DNA from: Candidatus Parcubacteria bacterium
GTDB taxonomy: Bacteria > Patescibacteriota > Minisyncoccia > UBA6257 > HR35
DNA length: 64,000 bases
Assembly: GCA_026004535.1 (NCBI GenBank)
Contig: BPJI01000001.1
Coordinates: 431,424 to 495,423, forward strand
Reading direction: 5' to 3'
The position numbers and the translations under genes are program-made. The notes beneath the pieces are model-generated. The model was given only the letters and a program-made list of their open reading frames with translations, searched no databases and was not told where the DNA came from. Shown in pieces: positions 1,919-51,002 of this stretch; position 1 is the stretch's first letter; each line of letters opens with the position of its first letter.

Positions 1919-2296
1919 ATGGCAAAGAAGATAATAATAGGTACAAATTTGATATTAGATATTATCAATGTAGACTCTGCTGTTTTGAGTAAGAGAAAAA
2001 ATATTTTAGACTTGCTTAAAAAATTAATTAAGGAAACTAAATCAACTCCTGTCTCTAAACCATTCATCAAAAAAATAAAATCACCTAAATACCCTTATGA
2101 AGGTTATTCAGTTATTCAAATTATTCAAGAAAGTCATATTGCTATTCATACTTGGCCTGAATATAATTATCTAGCTATTGACATTTTTTCCTGTAAGAAA
2201 ATTAATGAGAATAAAATAATCTTTATTTTAAAGAAGATATTTAGCAAAAATACAAGAATTAAAGTAAAAATTTATCAAAGAATAGCCGAGTATTAA
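1919..2296 (+). CDS. speH: S-adenosylmethionine decarboxylase proenzyme (class 1, pyruvoyl-dependent)
   Basis: 125 aa. Carries [11 protein letters not shown]...AIDIFSC, the AdoMetDC self-cleavage (ES) and active-site Cys region. Confidence 0.75.
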
Positions 2297-2625
2297 TTTT
2301 AGTTCGTAAAACAATTATTTTGCGAATTTATAAATGTTCTCTCTTAAAAAAAGCTTATTTAATTGGAATTAATTGAATCTCCATCTTTTTACCTACTCTC
2401 AAGTTCTTTCCCAAATTTTTAATCAATCATTTGATCATTTGATATTGATATTTGCGGTTCTCGTAGTAAAAGTTAAACCACAGCAATTTTAATAAAAATT
2501 TTTAGAGACACCAGCTATGATACCACAGTTCTCGTTGGTTCAGAAATTATAGAATAGAAAAGCAATGTTTTGTTAGGCAAAAATTTTAAATTGGTAGTCA
2601 TAACTAACTTCCGAGTTGGTGATGT

Positions 2626-2835
2626 TTATAAAATTTTAGAAGCCCTTAAAAGTTCAATTATTTGATCAATATCTTTTTCTTCAATAGGCAGCTTAATTTC
2701 GGTTGGTTGATGTTGTTTGAAGTAAATTTCATTTCCCTGCCCTATTTTTTGAGCTAAAAAAAATATTGTTAAACCATTAATCAGAATCACAACTGAAATA
2801 TAAATAATCATTATGGCTAATTTTGCTTTTTTCAT
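2626..2835 (-). CDS. hypothetical small membrane protein
   Basis: 69-aa ORF with one TM helix. Its start overlaps the upstream gene's stop (ATGA). Confidence 0.3.
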   Translation of the reverse strand: MKKAKLAIMIIYISVVILINGLTIFFLAQKIGQGNEIYFKQHQPTEIKLPIEEKDIDQIIELLRASKIL

Positions 2836-3356
2836 TTTGTCTGTAAATTTAATTCAATATTCAAATTATTGTTAATTTTATCAATTTTAAAATTGATTGT
2901 TTGCCAAATTAAACCACTTTCAATCATAAAATTGGAAAATTTTTCCAAATCGCTCTCGGGCAACTGAAAAATAAAAGTTAATTTTTTTTCTTGTTGATTA
3001 AAACTTGTTGTTTGAATTGACCAATTCTCTTTTTGTAATTTTTCATTAACCAAATTTTTAGTTGTCTCAAAATCTCGATCTAATTTTTGATTAGCTTCAA
3101 ATAAAATTGTTTTTAATTCCTTACCAGTTTTTTGTTCAATCAAACTAACTATCTTTTTTATTTTATTTTGACTTTCAATTGTCGCTTGGTTTTGAATCAA
3201 TTTTTCTTTTAAATTATTAATCTCGTTTATTTTTGCCAAAGTTTTTTGGGAATAAAAATTAAGTATAAAAAAATAACCAACAGTTATCAGAAGAAAAATA
3301 AGAGTAAAAACAGCTATCTTTAAATAAATTTTATTTAATGTCTGATTATGGCCCAT
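2832..3356 (-). CDS. hypothetical membrane-anchored coiled-coil protein
   Basis: 174 aa with an N-terminal TM helix and a K/E/Q-rich coiled coil. It resembles PilN/PilO-type assembly proteins only in architecture. Confidence 0.35.
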   Translation of the reverse strand: MGHNQTLNKIYLKIAVFTLIFLLITVGYFFILNFYSQKTLAKINEINNLKEKLIQNQATIESQNKIKKIVSLIEQKTGKELKTILFEANQKLDRDFETTKNLVNEKLQKENWSIQTTSFNQQEKKLTFIFQLPESDLEKFSNFMIESGLIWQTINFKIDKINNNLNIELNLQTK

Positions 3357-3360
3357 TAAT

Positions 3361-3530
3361 TATTCATTACCCGGATATGGAACGGATAAATTAACTGGAT
3401 GTAAACCGGATGATATTATTAATTATTTTTACTCGGATTTACACCGGATAAACTACCCTGATTATAACCGGATATATCTGGTATTCATCCGGGTAATTAA
3501 TCAGGTATTTAATCCGGGTAATCTATTTAA
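3361..3530. repeat. ccggat-word repeat element (direct block, then inverted atccggg block)
   Basis: About a dozen (a)cccggat / aaccggat words at ~11-13 nt spacing, followed by the reverse-complement words catccgggtaa / aatccgggtaa. Confidence 0.8.
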
Positions 3531-5432
3531 TTATAACTCTTTTTCTTTAATTTCAACAAAAATTTCTAATTCCTCTTTAGTAATTATCTCTTCTTTAATT
3601 TTACCTAAATGTTCTAAGGGCGTAGCGAAAATTTCCTTGATAATTGCTCGAGGATTAATTTTGTTTTTCTTATTAAATTCCATTTGATATTTTCTTCTTC
3701 TTTGGGTTTCCTTTATGGCAGCTTCTAATGATTTGGTTATTTTATCAGCATACAAAATTACTTTACCTTCTAAATGACGAGCACTTCTCCCGATTGCTTG
3801 GATTAATGTTGTTGTATTTCTTAGAAATCCTTCGCGGTCAGCATCTAAGATAGCTACTAAGGAAACTTCAGGCAAATCTAATCCTTCTCTTAGAAGATTA
3901 ACTCCGACCAAAACCTCAATTTCGCCTGTTCTTAATTTTTTTATAATCTCTGCTCTTTTTAAGGTTTTAATATCTGAATGTAAATAGTTCGCTTTAATTC
4001 CCTGCTCTAATAAAAATTCAGTTAAATTTTCGGCTGATCTTTTAGTTAAAGTTAAAACCAAAACTCTTTGATTTTTATCAAGTCTTTCTTTTATCTCTTT
4101 TAATAAATCTAAAACTTGATTTTTAGTTGGTCGCACTTCAATTTCTGGATCTAAAATACCTGTTGGCCTTACTAGTTGTTCAACGATCTGCGAAGAAATT
4201 TTTCTTTCAAAAGGTCCAGGAGTTGCTGAAACAAAAATAATCTGGAAATTTTTATTGAAAAATTCATCAAATGTTAAAGGCCGATTATCGATTGCTGAAG
4301 GTAATCTCCAGCCATATTCAACTAAAATTTCTTTTCTTTTTCGATCACCATTAGCCATTGCTCTTAATTGAGGAATGGCTAAGTGCGATTCATCAATAAA
4401 CAAAATTGTTTCTGATGGTAAATAATCTAATAAAGTATATGGTGGTTCACCTGGATTTCGAAAAGATAAATGCCTTGAATAATTTTCAATTCCAGAACAA
4501 TAACCATATTTTTCTAAAAGATGAATATCTAACAAGGTTCTTTGTTTAATTCTTTCAGCTTCAACAATTCTTCCCTGCTCCAAAAATTGCCAATATCTTT
4601 CTTTTAATTCTTGTTTGATATTTAAGATAGCAATGTCTAATTTTTCTTTGGGGGTGACAAAAAATTTAGCTGGAAAGATTTTAATATATTCTAATTCTTC
4701 ATAATCTCCAGTTATTTCTAATTTAAAAACATCCTCTCTTGATTTTTTGATTGTAAATTTTTTAATTGATTTTATGATTTTGTTTTGCCATTTAATTTCT
4801 AACATATAACTTCCGTCAGGGTTAAAAATGTAAATTCCTGAATTTTCTCGGTCATAAATATATGTTCCTGATCTGATTGTATTCAAACTTCCTTTTTCAT
4901 ATTGTAATGTTTTTAAATAATCAATAACATCTTTAAGGGAAATTTTTTGGCCAACATTTAAATTTAAACAAATATTTTTATATTCTTCAGGATCACCAAT
5001 GCCATAAATACAACTAATTGAGGAGACAATAATAAAATCTTTTCTAGTTAAAACACTTTCAATGGCAGCATGACGAAGTTGATCTAAAAGCTCATTAATT
5101 CTTGCATCTTTAGCAATATAAATATCTGTTTCAGGTAAATAAGCTTCCGGCTGGTAATAATCATAATAACTAACAAAATAATGAACTGCATTTTCAGGAA
5201 AGAAATATTTAAATTCTTGATAAAGTTGAGCCGCCAAAACTTTATTAGGTGAAAGAACCAAAGCAGGCCTTTGAGTTTTATAAATAACATTAGCCATAGA
5301 AAATGTTTTTCCACTGCCAGTCACTCCTAAAAGTGTTTGAAATCTATAATTTTTATTCAATCCGGCAACTAACTTTCTAATTGCTTGAGGCTGATCTCCA
5401 GATGGTTTGTAATCCGAAATCAATTTGAACAT
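3531..5432 (-). CDS. uvrB: excinuclease ABC subunit B
   Basis: 633 aa. Walker A GVTGSGKTF, UvrB helicase motifs and a C-terminal UVR-like helix. Confidence 0.9.
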   Translation of the reverse strand: MFKLISDYKPSGDQPQAIRKLVAGLNKNYRFQTLLGVTGSGKTFSMANVIYKTQRPALVLSPNKVLAAQLYQEFKYFFPENAVHYFVSYYDYYQPEAYLPETDIYIAKDARINELLDQLRHAAIESVLTRKDFIIVSSISCIYGIGDPEEYKNICLNLNVGQKISLKDVIDYLKTLQYEKGSLNTIRSGTYIYDRENSGIYIFNPDGSYMLEIKWQNKIIKSIKKFTIKKSREDVFKLEITGDYEELEYIKIFPAKFFVTPKEKLDIAILNIKQELKERYWQFLEQGRIVEAERIKQRTLLDIHLLEKYGYCSGIENYSRHLSFRNPGEPPYTLLDYLPSETILFIDESHLAIPQLRAMANGDRKRKEILVEYGWRLPSAIDNRPLTFDEFFNKNFQIIFVSATPGPFERKISSQIVEQLVRPTGILDPEIEVRPTKNQVLDLLKEIKERLDKNQRVLVLTLTKRSAENLTEFLLEQGIKANYLHSDIKTLKRAEIIKKLRTGEIEVLVGVNLLREGLDLPEVSLVAILDADREGFLRNTTTLIQAIGRSARHLEGKVILYADKITKSLEAAIKETQRRRKYQMEFNKKNKINPRAIIKEIFATPLEHLGKIKEEIITKEELEIFVEIKEKEL

Positions 5433-5534: not shown

Positions 5535-6947
5535 ATGCTCTTAACTGGTTATGATTTAAGAGGTATTTTTAAAAAAGAATTGACTTTTGATGTTATTTAT
5601 CAAGCAACTAAACAGTTTTTTAAGAAATTAAAAATTAGAAAAGCCATTTTGGCTGTTGATGCAAATAGAAATAATTTTTTAATTAAAGATTTCTTAGAAA
5701 GAAATTTCAATCTTGAGTTTATTGGCGTTCTACCAACGCCAATTTTTTATTATAAAGTCATTAAAATAAAAATTCCTGGAATTATGATTACTGCTTCTCA
5801 TTTGCCTTTAAAATATTCGGGGTTGAAATTTATTTTAGAAAATGGCGAACCGTGGAAACCTTATATTAGCGCGTTGCCTTCGGGTCATACCCCCGAAGCC
5901 CACAGCCCTCGGAGTGCTATCGTACGCACCTCTGCCGGAATGACCCTCAGGCAAACGCGCCGGATAATTAATTTACAAAAGCACCAGATAATTAAGGAAT
6001 ATTTTAAAACTTTATTTTCTATCATCAAACCGAAAAAGAAAATTTTTGTTTGTTTTGATAAGAAAAATTTTTTTCTTAATGCTTCCCTACCCTATTTTGA
6101 AAAATTAAAAATTTTTCATCAAGATAATTCTCCAATTAAGATTAAATCTGATTTAGACAATGACAGAATTTTTGTTTATCTTAAAAAAAGAAAAATTCAT
6201 AATGATTTAATTTTTTATTATTTAGCTCTTTTGCCTCAATATAAGAAATTGGCTGTGCCAATATTTTTCAGTCAAAAACTAAGACAAGAACTTATTAAAA
6301 AAGGTAAGAAGATTTATTTTATTCCAACTGGACACTATTATTTCAAAAAAGCATTCAAAAAATATAATTTAGACTTAGGTTTTGAACCAAGTGGTCATTT
6401 TTATATGTTTAAAGATTTAAAAACAGAATCGCCCTATTTGGCCTTAGGTTTATTTTTACATTTATTAGCAGAACTTACGGACCTAACACAGACAGAACGG
6501 ACCAAACAGAGAATAGCCTTGGAGGAAATTTTAAAATTAAATAATTCACTTCAACTTTATCGTTTTGATATTAAGAAAATACAATCAGAAGAAAATGTTG
6601 TCTCTTTTTTGAAGAAGAGATATAAGTTAAAATTAAAAAAGTTTGACGGTTATTTATTATTTCCAAAGGAAAAAACAGAACTTACAAAACTAACACAGAA
6701 TTTAAATAAAAATACTATCGCAGAACTTACTGAACTAACACAGAACTTACAGAAAAATACTACCTCAGAAATTGCAGAACTAACACAGAACTCGCAGAAA
6801 AATTCAGTGAGTTCTGCGTCAGTTCAGCATGGTTCTGCGTTCTACCTGTATTTAAGGAAAAGCAAAACAGAAAATAAATTAAGAGTATCTTTTGAAGGCG
6901 ACAAAAAAATTCTCAAAGAAATAAAACAATGGCTCATGAAGATTTAA
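5535..6947 (+). CDS. phosphoglucomutase/phosphomannomutase-family protein carrying in-frame repeat insertions
   Basis: TASHLP (active-site Ser, SHNP-like) and GFEPSGH (GEESGH-like) phosphohexomutase motifs. Interrupted by a GC-rich ~100-nt insert and by ELTxLTQN repeat blocks. Confidence 0.6.
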   Translation: MLLTGYDLRGIFKKELTFDVIYQATKQFFKKLKIRKAILAVDANRNNFLIKDFLERNFNLEFIGVLPTPIFYYKVIKIKIPGIMITASHLPLKYSGLKFILENGEPWKPYISALPSGHTPEAHSPRSAIVRTSAGMTLRQTRRIINLQKHQIIKEYFKTLFSIIKPKKKIFVCFDKKNFFLNASLPYFEKLKIFHQDNSPIKIKSDLDNDRIFVYLKKRKIHNDLIFYYLALLPQYKKLAVPIFFSQKLRQELIKKGKKIYFIPTGHYYFKKAFKKYNLDLGFEPSGHFYMFKDLKTESPYLALGLFLHLLAELTDLTQTERTKQRIALEEILKLNNSLQLYRFDIKKIQSEENVVSFLKKRYKLKLKKFDGYLLFPKEKTELTKLTQNLNKNTIAELTELTQNLQKNTTSEIAELTQNSQKNSVSSASVQHGSAFYLYLRKSKTENKLRVSFEGDKKILKEIKQWLMKI

Positions 6948-27152: not shown

Positions 27153-27535
27153 TAGGCAGACAGCAGCGGAAAATCTTAAAACGCAGACAGCTGCGGAAAT
27201 GCTTTAACTACCCGGATGGTCTATCGGATATAATTACCCGGATAGCTTATCGGATAATGTTTATCCAGATGAATACCGGATTATTTTATCCGGATGATTA
27301 CCGGATATTTATCTAACCGGATAACTTACCGGATATAGTTACCCGGATAAACTAACGGATATAATTACCCGGATTAATAACCGGATAAAAATACTCTATA
27401 TATCATCCGGTCTATATCCGGGTAGTTCTATCCGGTTCATAGCCGGGTAGTATTATACGATTATAATCCGGGCAGAAAATATTTTCAGCTGCTGTCTGCG
27501 GTAAATACTCTGACCACTGCTGTCCATATTAATAA
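27040..27535. repeat. composite repeat hotspot: cagctgc block, ccggat direct+inverted block, ctgctgtc block
   Basis: 27040-27200 holds gacagctg / cagctgc words. 27205-27480 holds ccggat and atccgg words. 27481-27535 holds cagctgctgtctgcg. Confidence 0.8.
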
Positions 27536-34720: not shown

Positions 34721-37501
34721 TTAATATTTCATTTGCAACCTTATTTTTCTATTAATTTTTGCTTTTTCTAAAATAACATTCTTTGTTTTTTCAAATCGCT
34801 TAAAGTTTTCTTGGTTCAAAAATTCTTCAAGTTCTTTTTCCTCAACAAAAGCACCGATATAAGGAATTGTTGATTTTAATATTTTAATTAAAACAAAATC
34901 ACTTTTACCTGGCCCACCACCTTTTTCTTCTAATTTTTGCCAATTTTCTTTTAACCAATTAAAAGTGAATTTTGCTGCATTTGAATTTAAAGAAACTGAA
35001 TTGAAAAAGAAAATAGTCTGATTAAATCTAACTTGTGAAGAAAGAATAAATTCAAAAATAGAACTTAACTTTTCTAAATTTTGTAAATTACCAAAAGCAA
35101 TTAAACATTTATTTTGTTCTTCAATCAAATTAGTCTGATGATAATAATTCAAAAGTTTTTCTAAATAGTTATCATTAGCAATTAAAGCATTATTAAAGAT
35201 TGCTTGTTTAATATCAGGATGAAGTTTTTCTTTGTCTTTTAAAAATTCTTCAAATTTTTCTTGGCTGAAATCTAAAATCTCTTTATTCTTCAAAATTCCC
35301 AAAGAAAATAGAGTTTTTTGCCTTAAAACTGTTTCATAAGGTTGTTCACCTTCCCTCGGCTCTTTTCCTAAAATATCCAAAACTTTTAAAGAAAATTTTT
35401 CTAATAAAGCGGAAAGGTCAGAAACGGACGCGGAACGAACGGAATAAGCGGAACTGGTTTTTCCGTCTGTTCCATTTTTTCCGTGTCCGTTTCCGTCTGT
35501 TCTGCTTTGATCTGTATCAATTCTGCGCAGTTCCGCGTTTAGTCTGCGTTGGTCTACGTCTATCCTGCGTTGGTCTGCGTTTAGTAAATAATAATAAAAA
35601 TTTAAATAAGAAATAATTTCACTAAAAACAAAGGGTTTAGAATTATTGATAAAATATTTTTCTAAAATTTCTAAAAAGTTTTCAAAATTTTTCTCACCCT
35701 TTCTAACTAACATATCATAATCATGAACTAAATGAACCTGATCAATTTCATTTAATTTTTCTAAATTCTCTAAATTTCTTTTTAGAATTTCTTCATCATA
35801 ATCACTAACAAAAAAACTTGAATAGTTTTTATTAAGAATAAAAGTTGAAAAATTAGATTCAGGAATTGGGGCGATTTCTTCTTTTTCTTTTAATATTTTT
35901 CTTTCTTCTTTATTATCAATTTCAATCACAAAAGGAATTTTCCAATAATCTTCTCTGTCTTCTAAAAATAAGAATCTCCTTTGTCTTAAACAGTATCTGC
36001 CTTGCTCTTTTTTAAAACTTACCAAAGGATAGCCAACTTTTTCAATATAATCTTTCATAATCTCAACCACTGGCACACTCGAAACTTCTTCTAAGCATTG
36101 CCACAAATCTTCTGCTTTAGCATTTTGATAAGTAAATTTTTTAATATACAGCCTCAATCCTTCTCTAAATTTTTCTTCACCTAAATAATTCTCAATCATC
36201 CTTAAAACACTGCCACCTTTTTCATAAGATATCTCATCAAAAATTTCAACTGACTCATTTGGATCTTTAACCTCAACTTTAATCGGGTGAGAAGCAATCA
36301 AACCATCAGCATTCAAAGCACTAAAAACTTCATCCAAAACATATTTTTCTAAAATTCTCCAATTAGGATAAAAATTATTAACAGCTTTATAAGCTAAATA
36401 AGTGGCAAAGCTTTCATTTAACCATAAATCGTCCCACCACTTCATTGTTACTAAATTACCAAACCACATATGAACTAATTCATGAGCAATAACTTCAGCA
36501 ATTCTTTCTTGGGTAGATTTTGGTGTTATGCCTTCGAAAACTAAAAGTAAATTCTCGCGAAAAGTAATTGCTCCCCAATTTTCCATTGCTCCAGCAGCAA
36601 AATCAGGAACAGCGATTAGATCTAATTTTTTTAAGGGATAAGGGGAATCAAAATATTCTTCTAAATAATTTAAAAATTTTTTAGCATTTTCTAAAGCAAA
36701 TCTTACTCCTTCTAATTTTTCCTTTGGCGTAACTGCCACTCGAATAATAACTTCTTTATATTTATCTTCAACAAAATACCAATCACCAATTCCAATATAC
36801 AAAAGATAAGTTGACATCTTGGGAGTTGTTTCAAAAATCACTTTTTTCTTTTCATTAACAATTTCTTCTTTAATTGGCAAAGTATTGGAAATTGCTTTTA
36901 ATTCTTTAGGAAAAATTAAAGTTAAATCAAACGTTGCTTTTTTATCTGGGTCATCAAAACAAGGAAAAGCTTTGCGTGCTTCAATTGGTTCAAATTGAGT
37001 TGTGATTAAACATTTTTCTTGTTCTTTGTCTTTATATTTACTTAAATAAATTCCTCCTAAAACCTCTTTTAATTCTCCTTCAAAATCAATAAAAATAGTA
37101 TTATCTTTTTCAGAAAAATTATTTTTAATCAAAATTCCATCTTTTTGAACTTCAAAATCTACATCTTGGTCATTCACTTTTAGCTGATTAATTTTTAAAT
37201 CAACAGCATCAATTTTTAGAAAATTACCCCGATGATCACCTGATAGATTACCCGGATAATTGTCTGGCATATTACCCGGATAATCACTGGATAAATCCGG
37301 TTCATATTCGGGTAGTATTATCCGGTTAATATCCGGGTGGTTCCATCCGGTTTGAATCCGGGTAGCTGTATCTGGTTTTAATCCGGGTAAACTAATTCTT
37401 ATCTCTTCTCTGCCTCGATAAATATTCTTCTCTAAATCAAAGTCTAATTCAATTTTATAATTTCTAACTTCCATTATTTTTCCTTGATAAATTTTCAACA
37501 A
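34721..37501 (-). CDS. pepN: aminopeptidase N (M1 family) with in-frame repeat insertions
   Basis: GAMENWG exopeptidase motif and HELVHMWFGNLVT...WLNESFA zinc motif. The acggaa/ctgcg element at 35395-35580 and the ccggat element at 37228-37392 sit inside the ORF. Confidence 0.85.
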   Translation of the reverse strand: MLKIYQGKIMEVRNYKIELDFDLEKNIYRGREEIRISLPGLKPDTATRIQTGWNHPDINRIILPEYEPDLSSDYPGNMPDNYPGNLSGDHRGNFLKIDAVDLKINQLKVNDQDVDFEVQKDGILIKNNFSEKDNTIFIDFEGELKEVLGGIYLSKYKDKEQEKCLITTQFEPIEARKAFPCFDDPDKKATFDLTLIFPKELKAISNTLPIKEEIVNEKKKVIFETTPKMSTYLLYIGIGDWYFVEDKYKEVIIRVAVTPKEKLEGVRFALENAKKFLNYLEEYFDSPYPLKKLDLIAVPDFAAGAMENWGAITFRENLLLVFEGITPKSTQERIAEVIAHELVHMWFGNLVTMKWWDDLWLNESFATYLAYKAVNNFYPNWRILEKYVLDEVFSALNADGLIASHPIKVEVKDPNESVEIFDEISYEKGGSVLRMIENYLGEEKFREGLRLYIKKFTYQNAKAEDLWQCLEEVSSVPVVEIMKDYIEKVGYPLVSFKKEQGRYCLRQRRFLFLEDREDYWKIPFVIEIDNKEERKILKEKEEIAPIPESNFSTFILNKNYSSFFVSDYDEEILKRNLENLEKLNEIDQVHLVHDYDMLVRKGEKNFENFLEILEKYFINNSKPFVFSEIISYLNFYYYLLNADQRRIDVDQRRLNAELRRIDTDQSRTDGNGHGKNGTDGKTSSAYSVRSASVSDLSALLEKFSLKVLDILGKEPREGEQPYETVLRQKTLFSLGILKNKEILDFSQEKFEEFLKDKEKLHPDIKQAIFNNALIANDNYLEKLLNYYHQTNLIEEQNKCLIAFGNLQNLEKLSSIFEFILSSQVRFNQTIFFFNSVSLNSNAAKFTFNWLKENWQKLEEKGGGPGKSDFVLIKILKSTIPYIGAFVEEKELEEFLNQENFKRFEKTKNVILEKAKINRKIRLQMKY

Positions 37502-39840: not shown

Positions 39841-39990
39841 ATTTTTACCCAGATTATAACCAGATAATACTACCCGGATATTAACCGGATATAACTACTC
39901 GGATTCAAACCGGATACAAATACCCGGATATAAACCGGTATTCATCCGGGTAATCTATCCGGTATTAATCCGGGCATATTAATAAAATCT
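39841..39990. repeat. ccggat-word repeat element
   Basis: taacccagat / aaccagat / acccggat words, then catccgggtaa / atccggtatt / aatccgggca words. Confidence 0.8.
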
Positions 39991-44435: not shown

Positions 44436-45161
44436 ATGGACTTTTTAAAAATAATTACAAAATATAAAAACAGACCAATACCTGAAAGAAAGTTTGATCA
44501 ATTCTATGCTACGGCCGATACTGTTATTAAAAGAAGCAACCTATTATTGAGATATCAAAAAAAATTCAAATTTTCTAAAATTATTTTTCTTGGTGATGAT
44601 GATTTAACTTCAATTGCTTTGGCTTTAACTAAAAAATTTGATGAAATTATTGTTTTAGATATTGATGAAAGAATTTTAAATTTTATTAATGAAGTTACTG
44701 AAAAGGAAAAATTAAATGTAAAAATATTTAAACATAATATTTGCAACCCTTTATCAAAAGATTTACTTAAAACCCAAACCAATTTTATTTTCTTTGATCC
44801 ACCTTATAATCCTTCGGCAGTTAAAATTTGGCTGATTAGGGCATTGGAAATTCTTTTAGGTTTAGGAAGTAATAAAAAAAGAAAAAATATAGAATTTTTA
44901 AAAAACAAATTTATTTTTATGTGTTATGGTTATACAGATAAAAGTTTTGAAAGAGGTTTAAAGATTCAAGAAATAATTCATAATTTAGGTTTAATCATTC
45001 AAGAAAAATTTAGAAAGTTTAATAAATATACCGGAGCCGAGACAATTAATAATGAAAGTGATTTTTATATTATTCAACCAACGCCTTTGGTTAAATTAGA
45101 AACAATAGATAAGTTTAAAAACAAAAGTTTTGAAGAAAAAATTTATACTTGGCAAAATTGA
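44436..45161 (+). CDS. BpsA-like aminopropyltransferase (DUF43; N4-bis(aminopropyl)spermidine synthase family)
   Basis: IIFLGDDDLTSIALAL and FFDPPYN, the signature motifs of DUF43/BpsA. Confidence 0.6.
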   Translation: MDFLKIITKYKNRPIPERKFDQFYATADTVIKRSNLLLRYQKKFKFSKIIFLGDDDLTSIALALTKKFDEIIVLDIDERILNFINEVTEKEKLNVKIFKHNICNPLSKDLLKTQTNFIFFDPPYNPSAVKIWLIRALEILLGLGSNKKRKNIEFLKNKFIFMCYGYTDKSFERGLKIQEIIHNLGLIIQEKFRKFNKYTGAETINNESDFYIIQPTPLVKLETIDKFKNKSFEEKIYTWQN

Positions 45162-45308: not shown

Positions 45309-45818
45309 TTATACTAATTTTGATAGTTTTTTATATAACTTTGATTTTCTATCTAATTTGCTTAGTACTTGATACAGTTTTTTCTTTTGCTTTTTGTTCA
45401 TAATTTTTATAATCTCTTCTATTAAAAGTTCTGGCCAAAACATAGATGGCATTCTTCTTTTTATTTTTCTCCAATCTTTCTCTATATAATCTAAAATAGT
45501 CGGTTGTTTTATTTCTTTCTTGATTCTTTCCTGAATCAATCTGAAACCTTCCCCACTTTCGTATAACCACACAGCAACTTTGGCTATAGTCCCATGGCTT
45601 ACTTTAACAACTTTTTCTATTTCTCTATAACTTAAACCTTTTAGTAATAATTTGGCAATTTTAATTCTTTTGGCTAACATAATTACTTCTTGTTTTGTCA
45701 AAAGATCAGTAATGAAATGCATAATTTCTTGACGATTTTTTAAAACAGAAATTGCTTCGCAAAATTCCTCTAGAAGCTCTGCTTTCTCCTGATCTGAAAT
45801 TGATTTGTATTTAGGCAT
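45309..45818 (-). CDS. TrpR-like YerC/YecD-family HTH regulator
   Basis: LLTKQEVIMLAKRIKIAKLLLKGLSYREIEKVVKVSHGTIAKV, the YerC/YecD pattern. Confidence 0.6.
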   Translation of the reverse strand: MPKYKSISDQEKAELLEEFCEAISVLKNRQEIMHFITDLLTKQEVIMLAKRIKIAKLLLKGLSYREIEKVVKVSHGTIAKVAVWLYESGEGFRLIQERIKKEIKQPTILDYIEKDWRKIKRRMPSMFWPELLIEEIIKIMNKKQKKKLYQVLSKLDRKSKLYKKLSKLV

Positions 45819-46009: not shown

Positions 46010-46691
46010 ATGAAAATTTATATTGGTACTTCAGGTTGGCAATATTGGCATTGGAGATGAAAATTTTACCCAGAAAATTCAACTTCTAAAGATTTTTTAA
46101 AATTTTATTCAAAACATTTCAATACTGTTGAAATTAATACAAGTTTTTATCATTTAACAAAAAAGACAACATTATCGTCTTTTTACTCATTTTAGAAGAT
46201 TAAAATTAAATAAAGAAGATAAAAAATTACTATTAGAAACTATCCAAATTTATAAAGTTTTAAAAGAAAAATTAGGACCAATTTTAATTCAACTTCCTCC
46301 AGGATTAAAATATGATTTAAAATTATTCAAATCATTTATAAATGTTATTAAAAAATTTAAAAAAGTAAAATTTGCTATTGAATTTCGTCATAAAACTTGG
46401 CTAAATAAAAAAATTTATACTCTATTAAAAAAATACAAAATAGCGTTCGTAATATCTGATTCACCAAGATGGCCAACTGATTTTGTTAAAACAACTGATG
46501 TGATTTATGTTAGATTTCATGGCAAACCAATTCTTTTTGCTTCAAAATACTCAAAAGAAGAATTAAAAGAATATGCTGAAAGAATTAAAAAACTAAAACC
46601 AAAAATTTTATTTGCTTATTTTAACAATGATGCTGAAGGTTATGCTATTGACAATGCTTTAGAATTTAAAAATTTATTTAATTTATCATAA
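46010..46691 (+). pseudogene. DUF72 (UPF0759) family gene, disrupted
   Basis: MKIYIGTSGWQYWHWR, then an in-frame TGA at 46058-46060, then KFYPE... A frame switch near 46180 and a missing mid-section follow. The C-terminal part (ending ...YVRFHGKPILFASKYSKEEL...AYFNNDAEGYAIDNA) is intact in another frame. Confidence 0.6.
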
Positions 46692-47449
46692 TCAGCTCCT
46701 CTTCTTATTATTTTTATTTCTTTTTGAGTTAAATCAATTAAAGTTGAAGGTTGACCAGCGAGCCTTCCTCTATCTAAATAAAATACTTGGTTATTAAAAT
46801 ATTTCTTTGCTTCATTTATAGTTTTTGCTGGTTCGTATCCTTCCCAATTAGCCGATGGAGCAATTAATGGCCCAGAAATTTTTAAAATTTTTAAGATAAA
46901 TTTATCTTTGGGGGATCTAAAAGCTAAAGTTATTGTTCCACGATGAAGATAAGTAAATTTTTCCGATTTACAAGGAAAAATGACGCTTATCCTGCTTGGC
47001 CAAATTTTCTTTAAAATTTCTTTTTGCCAATCTTGAAGTTGAATTTTGAAAAGTTTTAATTCTCTGATATCTGAAATCAAAATTATACAAGGCTTTTTAG
47101 GGTTTCTTTTTCTTAATTTATAAACTTTTTCAACTGATTTTTTATTAAAAGCAGATGTACAAATGCCGTAAATTGTATCAGTCGGAATAACTCCAATCGC
47201 TCCTTCTTTTAAAAGCAGAGCTGCTTTTAACCAATCGAAGTCTTTTCTTCCCAGATATTCACCAACAGTATAATCACTTTTAATTACTCGATGACAAGGA
47301 ATATTTTTGTCTTTGTTTTTCATCATCAAATTTCCAACAACTCTAAAAGCTTTTTCATTACCAACTAATCTAGCAACTTGTTTATATGTCAAAAATTTAC
47401 CAACCGAGATTTTGCTTACAATTTTTAAAACTTTTTCCTTAAAACTCAT
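46640..47449 (-). CDS. fusion protein: N-terminal MGMT/Ogt-like DNA-binding domain plus C-terminal YrdC/Sua5 (TsaC-like) domain
   Basis: N-terminus has KNIPCHRVIKSDYTVGEY (the PCHRV alkyl-acceptor Cys motif). C-terminus has GVIPTDTIYGICTSAFNKKSVEKVYKLRKRNPKKPCIILISD (YrdC/Sua5 signature). Confidence 0.6.
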   Translation of the reverse strand: MSFKEKVLKIVSKISVGKFLTYKQVARLVGNEKAFRVVGNLMMKNKDKNIPCHRVIKSDYTVGEYLGRKDFDWLKAALLLKEGAIGVIPTDTIYGICTSAFNKKSVEKVYKLRKRNPKKPCIILISDIRELKLFKIQLQDWQKEILKKIWPSRISVIFPCKSEKFTYLHRGTITLAFRSPKDKFILKILKISGPLIAPSANWEGYEPAKTINEAKKYFNNQVFYLDRGRLAGQPSTLIDLTQKEIKIIRRGADYDKLNKFLNSKALSIA

Positions 47450-47454
47450 ATATC

Positions 47455-47512
47455 TTAGTATAGTCTGCGTAGTTCTGCGTTAGTTCTGCATAAGTCTGCG
47501 GTTTATTTTAGA
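47455..47512. repeat. ctgcg-word repeat element
   Basis: tagtctgcgtagttctgcgttagttctgcataagtctgcgg. Confidence 0.6.
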
Positions 47513-48059: not shown

Positions 48060-48116
48060 ATAATTTATTGATTTCTGTAGGTTCTGTATTAGTTCTGTTA
48101 GTTCTGTGTGTTTAAT
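48060..48116. repeat. gttctgt-word repeat element
   Basis: ttctgtaggttctgtattagttctgttagttctgtgtg. Confidence 0.6.
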
Positions 48117-49614
48117 TTTTAACAACGACCTTTTTAATAATTGACCCTTGTTTAGTATCTTCAATTTTATAACCAGCTTCCAATACTTCTTCTCTAATTT
48201 TATCAGCTTCCTGCCACTTCCCTTCTTTTCTTAATCTTTCTCTTAATAAAACTTTCTTTTTAATTTCAGCTGGTAATTTTTGTTTTGCTAAAAATTCTTT
48301 GAATCCTAACCCCAAAATTTTATCAGCCTCTAAAACAAAAATTTTTTTAAATTTTAAATCTTCATCTGACTTTAAAATTTCCCATAATTTAGCAATTAAT
48401 CGAGGAGTATCAAGATCATAATTAACAATATTTAATATTTCTTTAAAAGCAGAATTATGCAGAACTAAATCAGAACTACCCAGAGCCGAGACTCGCTTGT
48501 CGCCAAATAGTGATTTATACAAATTAATAGAAAGATTAAAGCTGGAGATCGTCTCTAAAAGTAAGTTATATGCATTTTGAGCTGATTCCATTGCTTGCCA
48601 AGTAAAATTCATTTCTGAACGATAATGTGAGGTTAAAACTAAATATCTAAAAGCAAGCGGTTGAAAACCTTTTTTCTCAATATCTTCTAAAGTAATAATA
48701 TTTCCTAAACTTTTCGCCATTTTCTCTCCCTCAACTTTTAAAAAATTTACATGAAGCCAATAATTAACAAATTTTTTACCAGTTGCTGCTTCTGATTGAG
48801 CAATTTCATTAGTATGATGAATATCAATGTGATCAATACCGCCAGTATGAATATCGATTGTTTTACCTAAATATTTCATTGACATTGCTGAACATTCAAT
48901 ATGCCAACCAGGAAAACCAATGCCCCAAGGACTTCTCCATTCCATTTGTCTTTTCACATCTTTAGGTGAAAATTTCCATAGAGCAAAATCATACGGATTT
49001 CTTTTTTCAGGATTTATCTCAACTCTCGCGCCAGCTAATAATTTTTTCCTTTTAATTTGGGCCAATATACCATAATTTTTAAACTTAGAAGTGTCAAAAT
49101 AAATGCCATCTGAAATTTTGTAAGTATAGCCCTTTTTTTCTAAAATCTTTATAAGCTCAATCATTTCTTTTATATGCTGAGTTGCTCGAGGAAACTTAAA
49201 AGGAGTTTTGATATTTAATTTTTTAATATCTTCCTTGAAAATTTTTTCAAAATAACGTGCAATTTCCCAAGCAGTTTTTCTTTTTTCTCTGGCACTTTTT
49301 TCAATTTTATCTTCACCAGTATCAGCATCAGAGGTTAAATGTCCAACATCAGTAATGTTAATAATTTGTTTTACTTTATAGCCATTATACTCAAGTGTTC
49401 TTCTTAAGGTATCGGCAAAAATATAAGCTCTTAAATTACCAATATGAGGTCTTTCATAAACAGTTGGCCCACAATTATACATCGTTACTATCTTATCTTT
49501 CAAAGGTTTAAATTTTTCTTTTCTTCGAGTTAAGGTATTAAATAGATAAAGAGGCTCCATTAATTTAATTATAATTCGGTAATATCTCTTGGTAAAAATA
49601 AATTCAAAATCCAA
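48112..49614 (-). CDS. cysS: cysteine--tRNA ligase
   Basis: HIGNLRAY (HIGH motif) and KMAKSLGN (KMSKS motif). Confidence 0.9.
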
Positions 49615-51002
49615 TCAATAAATGTTTTAACTTGATCTCGAAAAGAAATCATTTTGCTTAAATAAACTCCTTTCCAAATAAACCAACTAATTAAACCAGA
49701 AAATTCAATTCCTTTAATTTCACCTAAGGCATAAAACCTACCAACTGAAATCAAATCGCCAGCATGTTTATAAATAAATTTCTGCAATGGTTTATTTTCA
49801 ATTAAATTTTTAATATTTAAAGCAACTAATTTTGCTTGTCTAACTGCAACTTGAGCTAATTGTGGTAATGGTTTTTGATCTTGAATAAAACAACAAACAT
49901 CACCAATTGCAAAAACATTATCATATACAGAACTACTCAGAACTGATGCAGGACTGACTGAATTATCTTTGGTTGCAGAACTATACTGAACTGACACTGA
50001 ACTAACAGAATTATTCTGTGAGTTCTGTATTGGTTCTGTATGTTCTGCATTATTCTGCAAATTCTGTGTAAGTTCAGCTCTTTCTGCGTCTATTTTCTTT
50101 TTCACCTGCAAATATTCATTTAAAACTAGTCTTCCTTTATTATCTTTTTCAACGTTACCAATAATTTCTGGTAAATTTGGTTCAACTCCTGCTGTCCAAA
50201 TAACTGTTTTTGTTTCAATAACATTACCGTCATCAAGTTTAATAAAATCTTCACCAACCTCAATTACTCCTTTTTCTAGTCTAACATCAACTTTTAATTT
50301 TTTTAACCTTTCAAGTGCTTTTTGTCTTAATTTTGGAGAAAATTGAGGAATTAATTCTTTGCCTTTTTCGATTAGAATTATTTTAACTTGTGAAATTAAA
50401 TCTGATGAATATAATTTACTAAATGTTTTATAAAACAAATCACTCATTTCACCAGCCAATTCAACTCCTGTTGCTCCACCTCCAACAATGACAAAAGTGA
50501 GATATTTATTTACCTTTTCTGGATATAAACTTCCTATTTCAAACATATGAACAAATCTATTTTTCAATCTTATAGCGTCATCAATTGTTTTTAAGGAAAA
50601 ACTATATTCTTTAGCCCCAGGAATATTGTAATAATTTGTTTTCGAACCTAAGGCAATAACTAGATAATCATAATTAACATTATAATCTTCTCTTTCTTTA
50701 TTTATGTAAACAATTTTGTTCTCTAAATCAATTTTTTCAACTTCTCCATGAACAAAATCAAAATCACAACATCTAATAATTTCTCTTATGGGTTCTAGGG
50801 CATTATCAATCGAAACTCCGCCAGTAGCAACTTCATGAAGTAAAGGCGTAAAAATAAAATAATTCTTTTTATTCACCAATACTAATTTTACTTTCTTATT
50901 ATGAAAAAGTTTATGTAAATGTTTTAAAGCATAAACACCACCAAATCCTCCACCTAAGATTACTATCTTCATTAAATAATCGGAAATAACGGAAACAAAC
51001 AC
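49569..51002 (-). CDS. ndh: type II NADH dehydrogenase / pyridine nucleotide-disulfide oxidoreductase with an in-frame cagaac/gttctg repeat insertion
   Basis: [12 protein letters not shown] motif and a second Rossmann motif [11 protein letters not shown]. The insert at 49925-50100 encodes [34 protein letters not shown]... Confidence 0.75.

Follow-up and report, generated by a model that had tools for sequence, protein, structure and literature searches.

An alkyltransferase-TsaC fusion protein from Parcubacteria with an apparently shared helix at the domain junction

Introduction

The YrdC-type domain of threonylcarbamoyl-AMP synthases is known to share one chain with a second domain in Sua5/TsaC2, HypF, TobZ, TsaN (TsaD-TsaC-SUA5-TcdA, 8IDE) and the TsaC/HemK protein of M. 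genitalium, and the known partners belong to the same pathway or at least to translation. O6-alkylguanine-DNA alkyltransferases (AGT, also named MGMT or Ogt) likewise occur in fused form, the known cases being Ada, AGTendoV, ATL-EndoV and AGT-2 (PMC10779285). Here we describe a gene that joins these two enzyme families. It lies in a 64,000-nucleotide stretch of a Candidatus Parcubacteria genome (assembly GCA_026004535.1, contig BPJI01000001.1, positions 431,424 to 495,423; referred to as the window), and its product carries an alkyltransferase domain at the N-terminus and a TsaC-type domain at the C-terminus. AGTendoV from Ferroplasma acidarmanus and AGT-2 from C. elegans resemble it in combining an AGT reduced to its C-terminal domain with a second module, and AGTendoV has both activities (PMC10779285); their AGT domains, however, are joined to a DNA endonuclease or to a histone-like tail, whereas the partner here is a tRNA-modification enzyme with no known role in DNA repair. 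Among the YrdC fusions, none has an alkyltransferase as partner, and in no case has a helix common to the partner and the YrdC core been reported.

We found no paper that pairs the MGMT/alkyltransferase domain (PF01035) with YrdC/TsaC (PF01300) and nothing relevant on threonylcarbamoyl together with Patescibacteria, and the words tRNA and Sua5 are absent from a 2023 review of AGTs (PMC10779285). Nor was the pairing mentioned in any of the searched reviews of the two families. The component domains are well known, and their combination is undescribed in the literature found.

Two complete domains in one reading frame

Pfam finds DNA_binding_1 (PF01035) at residues 3-83 of the predicted protein, where it spans positions 2-80 of the 81 in the profile (E 8.5e-21; 74 bits, cut-off 27), and Sua5_yciO_yrdC (PF01300) at residues 79-251, where it spans positions 2-178 of 178 (E 3.3e-40; 137.9 bits, cut-off 25.1). 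Two NCBIfam models also score above their cut-offs, the L-threonylcarbamoyladenylate synthase equivalog TIGR00057 (144.1 bits, cut-off 123.2) and the ogt superfamily model TIGR00589 (55.2 bits, cut-off 46.4). An AlphaFold2 model built with 66 homologues as input has a mean predicted local distance difference test score (pLDDT) of 94 and a predicted template modelling score (pTM) of 0.90. Comparison of this model with the PDB by Foldseek places its N-terminal part on human AGT 1eh6 with a root-mean-square deviation of 1.8 A over 85 columns (41% identity) and its C-terminal part on T. maritima TsaC2 with 2.2 A over 196 columns; P. abyssi Sua5 is also matched by the C-terminal part (about 2.2 A over about 196 columns). 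An earlier note, made from the sequence alone, had claimed an MGMT/Ogt-like domain followed by a YrdC/TsaC domain, and had left room for one of the two failing in domain searches. Pfam, NCBIfam and the predicted fold bear out both domains in that order, the two Pfam matches being far above their cut-offs, and the fusion is thus confirmed. The motifs that it quoted are found in the protein, PCHRV at residues 51-55 and KPCIILISD at residues 119-127, and PTDTIYG stands at residues 89-95.

An identical protein, KatS3mg096_488 from a Candidatus Parcubacteria metagenome-assembled genome, is on record. Public names for members of the family are inconsistent and include 'L-threonylcarbamoyladenylate synthase', 'methylated-DNA--protein-cysteine methyltransferase' and 'hypothetical protein'.

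The alkyltransferase half

Residue conservation was counted over 120 fused homologues, which represent the best database clusters. Tyr22, Arg36, Cys52, Arg54, Lys75 and Glu82 are each present in 120/120, His53 in 117, Pro51 in 118 and Asn45 in 110. The register of Tyr22, Arg36, Asn45 and Cys52 to human AGT comes from a profile match of query residues 5-70 to residues 97-163 of 1eh6; the human counterparts tested are the arginine finger R128, the tyrosine Y114, the Asn hinge N137, and E172 of the Glu-His-water-Cys relay. Lys75 and Glu82 lie beyond the matched range, and we take them to be K165 and E172 from the human sequence and the shared K..LL..EG motif. The earlier note was therefore right to see an alkyltransferase domain here but too narrow in calling it a DNA-binding one, as the whole catalytic set is present (acceptor Cys, His, Glu, Arg finger, Tyr and Asn hinge).

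With its PCHRV motif, Arg finger, Tyr, Asn hinge and relay Glu, this half is like the C-terminal domain of Ogt, Ada-C and human MGMT/AGT. It differs from them in having no N-terminal domain: there is no Pfam match to Methyltransf_1N (PF02870), the protein begins at the catalytic domain, and the 84 residues of this domain run directly into a second enzyme. An AGT does not strictly need its N-terminal domain, and active fusions with the C-terminal domain alone exist (PMC10779285).

Alkyltransferase-like proteins (ATLs) also consist of a single MGMT C-terminal fold without the N-terminal domain, but they bind nucleic acid with the acceptor Cys replaced by Trp or Ala; Cys52 is present in the window protein as well as in 120/120 homologues, and membership in the ATL group was rejected. 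In the closest relative (P0002, locus L001, from bacterium HR35, 81% identical) the motif reads LCHRV, and a few other homologues have PCYRV, PCNRV or SCHRV, the Cys being kept in every case. The loop between the Asn hinge and PCHR is a hot spot for insertions of 30-75 residues (P0007, P0058, L013, L037).

The TsaC half

Functional residues were mapped by alignment to P. abyssi Sua5 (Pa-Sua5) and the residue list of PMC6004061, which gives the equivalences T92=T35, R115=R58, R178=R121, S199=S143, N201=N145, S235=S181 and R249=R195. Thr92, Arg178, Ser199, Asn201 and Ser235 are invariant among the fused homologues, Arg115 is found in 119/120 and Arg249 in 118/120. The KxR/SxN tetrad, K50, R52, S139 and N141 in E. 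coli, is essential for ATP binding. The earlier note had suggested a look at the ATP- and threonine-binding residues; the threonine-binding residues, the Arg of KxR and the SxN motif are all kept, and the Lys of KxR is Arg in most homologues. Leu124 replaces His67 of Pa-Sua5, as it does in unfused TsaCs of Patescibacteria.

This half has the same fold as type-1 TsaC/YrdC (E. coli 1HRU/2MX1) and the catalytic domain of TsaC2/Sua5 (9DSV, 6F87, 3AJE), together with PTDTxYG, SxN, the Arg of KxR and the threonine-binding Thr/Arg/Ser/Arg, and it has no SUA5 domain. It departs from type-1 TsaC in apparently sharing its first helix with the alkyltransferase, in usually having Arg at the KxR Lys and in having Glu where Pa-Sua5 has Ser147. 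Beyond the YrdC domain there are 18 more residues and no further Pfam domain, and assignment to Sua5/TsaC2 was rejected because both the C-terminal SUA5 domain and the linker are missing. YciO is a TsaC paralogue without t6A (N6-threonylcarbamoyladenosine) function that lacks the KRSN tetrad (PMC4615747). Assignment to YciO was rejected as well: of the tetrad, three residues are strictly conserved and a conservative replacement holds the fourth place, and the profile score of E. coli YciO (47.7 bits) falls far below that of T. maritima TsaC2 (102.7 bits). Low-complexity insertions of up to about 90 residues occur in several homologues (P0019, P0036, P0065, P0112 and others) at a hot spot between the ISVIL strand and YLHRG.

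TsaC or TsaC2 is reported from every bacterial genome examined (PMC4615747). No second YrdC or MGMT open reading frame (ORF) was found in the 64-kb window or within 10 kb on either side of 80 related loci, except at one locus (L051, described below). Motif searches of the window and the loci for TsaD, TsaE and TsaB found nothing, with patterns that were perhaps too strict, so this result is uninformative. Judged from its sequence, the YrdC domain is probably the organism's housekeeping type-1 TsaC, and we infer that the fusion is both the sole TsaC and the sole MGMT of the genome. Mean pairwise identity among the fused homologues is 65% over residues 1-84 and 73% over residues 85-252, and the conservation described for the two active sites argues that both halves are under selection for canonical chemistry.

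The domain junction

Secondary structure assignment by DSSP on the AlphaFold2 model gives a helix at residues 69-81 that is followed directly, with no linker, by the strand at 86-89, the first strand of YrdC; the two Pfam domains overlap at residues 79-83. The last helix of MGMT and helix alpha-1 of YrdC thus appear, in the model, to have merged into one. The same can be read from the relatives of each half. Stand-alone MGMTs of Parcubacteria end in ...KKKLLKKEGAI (K-x-x-L-L-K-K-E-G-A-I), 2-5 residues past the catalytic Glu, the unfused TsaCs nearest to the fused clade start with M..KKIALLLRGGAIGVIPTDT, and the fused proteins read W-L-K-A-A-L-L-L-K-E-G-A-I-G-V-I-P-T-D-T at the junction, with Glu82 at a position held by Gly or Ala in the unfused TsaCs.

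The stand-alone MGMTs of 81-95 residues are 50-61% identical to residues 1-84 and have the same catalytic residues. They differ from the fused form in their Lys-rich KKKLLKKEG helix, which is replaced there by one with a hydrophobic face: the fused proteins have a four-residue D-L-D-W insertion with a conserved W73, and at A76, A77, L80 and F19 they carry hydrophobic residues in place of the Lys or Thr of the stand-alone proteins. The active-site loop differs too. These changes would agree with a helix that is buried between the two domains. The coordinates of these features are given in Table 1.

Table 1. Positions, in the window, of the fusion gene, its domains and motifs, and an upstream repeat array
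Feature	Positions	Strand	Evidence and remarks
MGMT(C-domain)::TsaC fusion coding sequence, complete	46640..47449	-	ATG start, 269 aa; ORF list, two Pfam domains, identical database protein P0001
Single-domain O6-alkylguanine-DNA alkyltransferase module, residues 1-84 (helix-turn-helix, PCHRV, terminal helix)	47198..47449	-	PF01035, Foldseek match to 1eh6, conserved residues
PCHRV active-site motif, residues 51-55, with putative alkyl-acceptor Cys52	47285..47299	-	Read from sequence; homologue conservation
Apparent shared helix and turn, residues 69-83, KDFDWLKAALLLKEG	47201..47245	-	Last MGMT helix (Lys75, Glu82) = YrdC helix alpha-1; DSSP, Pfam overlap
YrdC/TsaC catalytic domain, residues 85-252, type 1, no SUA5 domain	46694..47197	-	PF01300, TIGR00057, Foldseek match to TsaC2 and Sua5
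PTDTIYG, residues 89-95; Thr92 = threonine-binding Thr35 of Pa-Sua5	47165..47185	-	Alignment to 6f89 and PMC6004061; 120/120
R113-K114-R115, KxR half of the ATP-binding tetrad, Lys position = Arg	47105..47113	-	Alignment
S199-A200-N201, SxN half of the tetrad (S143, N145 of Pa-Sua5)	46847..46855	-	120/120
Four tandem 10-11-bp repeats (AGTCTGCGT / AGTTCTGCGTT / AGTTCTGCATA / AGTCTGCGG)	47463..47500		Within a 53-bp gap immediately upstream of the start codon; tandem repeat finder, pattern search

Distribution and origin of the fusion

Both Pfam domains occur in the same order in 120/120 of the best 90%-identity clusters, which draw on NCBI, JGI, ENA and Logan assemblies. A scan of one genome per GTDB species gave 80 loci, and by a hidden Markov model scan of the ORFs at these loci 37 are fused and 43 carry an unfused TsaC of about 190 residues; all 80 are labelled Patescibacteria or come from evidently mislabelled bins. 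The earlier note had asked whether the fusion might be a misjoin absent from related genomes, and its closest relatives do in fact have it, as do over 100 other protein clusters. The note's remark that the architecture is not standard stands with respect to the literature but not within one uncultured clade of Patescibacteria, where the fusion is the normal form of TsaC.

In a neighbour-joining tree of the YrdC domains, the fused group is nested among the unfused TsaCs of about 190 residues from sister Patescibacteria, and by this placement the fused YrdC domain looks like an ordinary TsaC for its lineage. Four unfused sequences (L033, L034, L035 and L038) fall inside the fused group. One of them (L035, 10049-10672) retains the MGMT start FSEKVLK and the last helix LAWRKLALLLKDGA and has lost the core in between, with TsaC kept; from its sequence it looks like the product of an internal deletion that removed the alkyltransferase core, and TsaC appears from this case to be the indispensable half. 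With 100 bootstraps the tree resolves little, the main fused clade having 11% support and a second family, described below, having 50%, and we therefore do not claim independent origins of the fusion from the phylogeny.

The nearest kin of residues 1-84, in a search of 1.8 billion representatives, are stand-alone PCHRV proteins of 80-120 residues. A search with one of the stand-alone MGMTs of 81-95 residues as query returned thousands of them, and the named ones are nearly all from the Parcubacteria group. Since such proteins (82 residues) are abundant in the phylum, the MGMT module is viable alone and needs no TsaC scaffold. In one species of Nomurabacteria (L051), an MGMT gene (81 residues), a small ArsR-like helix-turn-helix gene and TsaC stand in a row on one strand; a deletion in this gene order would give the fusion, and it is a possible precursor. 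This is the only one of the 43 unfused loci with an MGMT gene within 10 kb of tsaC, and a general adjacency of stand-alone MGMT and tsaC was rejected on that count. A stand-alone MGMT gene of Giovannonibacteria has unrelated neighbours, lying between NUDIX and Zip genes. On a Giovannonibacteria-type contig (L089-L093, about 2258-3599), a bAvd gene and a reverse transcriptase gene (RVT_1) were seen beside a stand-alone MGMT gene, a pairing typical of a diversity-generating retroelement. We propose as the probable origin a deletion that joined an upstream MGMT gene in frame to tsaC, made easy by the similar helix sequences (..LLKKEGAI and ..LLLKGGAIGV..), after which the fusion was kept across a clade of Parcubacteria.

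A second MGMT-TsaC family has five members of about 300 residues (P0193 and P0405-P0408). These proteins have a complete MGMT domain, a conserved linker of about 25 residues and a TsaC with its own first helix, and in all five the active-site motif is PCFRV, so that the catalytic His is changed to Phe and the Cys is kept. This family may have been fused independently or may represent a precursor that is less compact, the bootstrap values being too weak to choose. Other fusions join the minimal MGMT module to methylpurine-DNA glycosylase in both orders (P0136, P0198, P0138), to RNase HII (P0149, P0183) and to DUF1801 (P0128). A protein of 399 residues (P0462) combines TruB domains with a YrdC domain (TruB-TsaC).

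Proposed function and alternatives

We propose that the protein is one rigid polypeptide with two canonical and chemically independent activities, a housekeeping threonylcarbamoyl-AMP (TC-AMP) synthase and a suicide O6-alkylguanine alkyltransferase, and consider this fairly probable. The C-terminal domain would convert threonine, bicarbonate/CO2 and ATP to TC-AMP for the t6A37 modification of tRNA. The N-terminal domain would bind duplex DNA through its helix-turn-helix, flip out the damaged base with the Arg36 finger and Tyr22, and take the alkyl group irreversibly onto Cys52, activated via His53 and Glu82, in a single reaction per molecule; AGTendoV and C. elegans AGT-2 are precedents for active fusions of this reduced kind (PMC10779285). 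With helix 69-81 common to both folds, alkylation of Cys52 would cost the cell one TsaC molecule. Because alkylated AGTs are destabilised and the terminal helix of MGMT lies within the TsaC fold, each repair event plausibly carries this cost, and the loss may plausibly be a tolerated side effect or a selected function.

Several observations weigh against two independent and canonical activities. A suicide protein fused to an essential enzyme looks costly, and simple bifunctionality does not explain why the arrangement has been retained. The active-site loop of the fused form is GGY[MKL]G[RK] instead of the invariant GGYNxG, and its substrate range may differ. In the TsaC half, position 113 is Arg in 108 and Lys in 12 of the 120 homologues and Arg in the window protein, and Glu203 occupies the place of Ser147 in Pa-Sua5. 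That a second junction type exists hints at a functional tie beyond chance. As to the two TsaC positions, the mix of Arg and Lys at 113 and the Glu are found equally in the unfused TsaCs of Patescibacteria, which have the same active-site profile as the fused ones, and they are therefore traits of the lineage rather than effects of the fusion.

Tethered repair, damage sensing and a TsaC localised to nucleic acid, which the earlier note had raised, are candidate functions. The first alternative is that t6A synthesis is gated by alkylation and that the fusion was selected as a sensor: the alkylated Cys52 would destabilise the MGMT fold and, through the helix common to both folds, unfold TsaC or abolish its activity. 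Under alkylation stress less TC-AMP would be supplied and ANN codons would be translated more slowly, in an organism that has few regulators. The shared helix without linker and the high pTM of the model are in keeping with such coupling, as are the conserved residues specific to the fused junction (DLDW with W73, and A76, A77 and L80 against Lys in the stand-alone proteins). The OGT of S. solfataricus, moreover, loses 20-35 C of its melting temperature upon alkylation, which disrupts its domain contacts (PMC10779285). The persistence of the fusion in a diverse clade with both active sites intact speaks for it too, and so does the second junction type: be it a separate fusion or a precursor form, it would be compatible with selection for a functional tie. 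Gating is nonetheless pure inference, the four unfused members of the fused clade do without the MGMT domain, so that coupling is dispensable, no conserved gene neighbourhood points to a stress regulon, and one lesion per molecule would make a very blunt sensor; we regard it as unlikely. Its most explicit form, in which the captured alkyl group would unfold the shared helix and destroy the cell's only TsaC, throttling t6A and the decoding of ANN codons, AUG starts included, in proportion to the alkylation load, is likewise doubtful in our estimate.

The second alternative is that the MGMT domain repairs nothing and, like an ATL, holds TsaC on tRNA or another nucleic acid, or acts on alkylated tRNA bases, keeping the labile TC-AMP near its acceptor. 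It can draw on the invariance of the helix-turn-helix, the Arg finger and the Tyr, on the PCFRV motif of the second family, in which the catalytic His is lost and the Cys kept, and on an active-site loop unlike that of the stand-alone MGMTs. The tRNA binding of the YrdC cavity in E. coli TsaC itself (PMC6004061) also speaks for it. True binding-only ATLs have the Cys replaced (PMC10779285), and here Cys and Glu are kept in 120/120 and His in 117/120; a purely ATL-like tether is disfavoured because these residues are invariant or nearly so. The unfused sister TsaCs work without an MGMT domain, and the joining of the same module to DNA-repair enzymes elsewhere points to DNA as its substrate. A tether seems improbable to us.

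That the gene is an artefact of assembly or gene calling, or that one half is a non-functional relic, is scarcely credible, despite a frameshift near the 3' end of the KatS3mg094 orthologue (L012, 9947-10766), a Kaiserbacteria tsaC broken into two ORFs (L072, 9998-10543) and the long low-complexity insertions in several homologues, since the same in-frame junction recurs in 120/120 clusters from independent assembly sources and at 37/80 loci of related GTDB species, and the catalytic residues are invariant at mean identities of 65% (MGMT) and 73% (YrdC); a misjoin was rejected on these counts.

Genomic surroundings

The ORFs within 5 kb on either side of 81 loci were clustered, and no neighbour was found in more than 5 of 38 fused loci. 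In the window, the fusion gene converges with a gene at about 46020-46691 (+) that resembles DUF72 by eye, and the 3' ends overlap by 52 nt; this DUF72-like gene looks like a pseudogene, being interrupted by an in-frame stop after ...GWQYWHWR and by a frameshift. The ORF at 45309-45818 (-) encodes a Trp-repressor-family protein of 169 residues. An apparent synteny of TsaC and a Trp repressor between the window and the Nomurabacteria locus was rejected, the two proteins being unrelated by BLAST. The ORF at 44436-45161 (+) encodes a protein similar to the branched-chain polyamine synthase C-terminal domain (BpsA_C, E 3e-40), a similarity that would suit an organism from a hot spring.

The repeat array upstream of the start codon (Table 1) was rejected as a part of the fusion system, since no array was evident when the 120 nt upstream of six orthologues were inspected. 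Similar arrays of 10-11 bp, with the pattern (A)GT(T)CTG(C/T)(G/A)T against a genomic GC content of 28.5%, occur at 48070-48110, 50005-50075, 35542-35581 and 6675-6803, and one array lies in frame within an NDH-2-like ORF (49569-51002). The in-frame insertions of some homologues (P0007 and P0112), with peptides such as ELTQNSQN.. and LRKSA.., resemble translated repeats of this kind. Many further tandem arrays, whose repeat unit of about 25 bp is based on CCGGAT/ATCCGG (on ATCCGTG in one), were found at 3355-3522, 10332-10527, 12295-12606, 16378-16634, 27205-27472, 37295-37389 and 39846-39973.

Biological implications

The fusion pairs a stoichiometric, self-destroying DNA-repair protein with the enzyme that begins a tRNA modification which is universal and, as a rule, essential. 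SNAP-tag was engineered from a C-terminal domain to which the N-terminal domain described here (about 84 residues) is a natural relative, rigidly joined to an enzyme. If the two halves are independent, they would indicate that Patescibacteria, with their tiny genomes, compact their proteomes by merging terminal helices, and members of the family should be annotated as TsaC plus MGMT rather than as either alone, as in current database names. If the halves are coupled, the protein would be a new and testable link between alkylation of DNA or other nucleic acid and translational fidelity; and should the capture of an alkyl group indeed destroy the cell's only TsaC, this would amount to a stress response without a regulator in a minimal genome.

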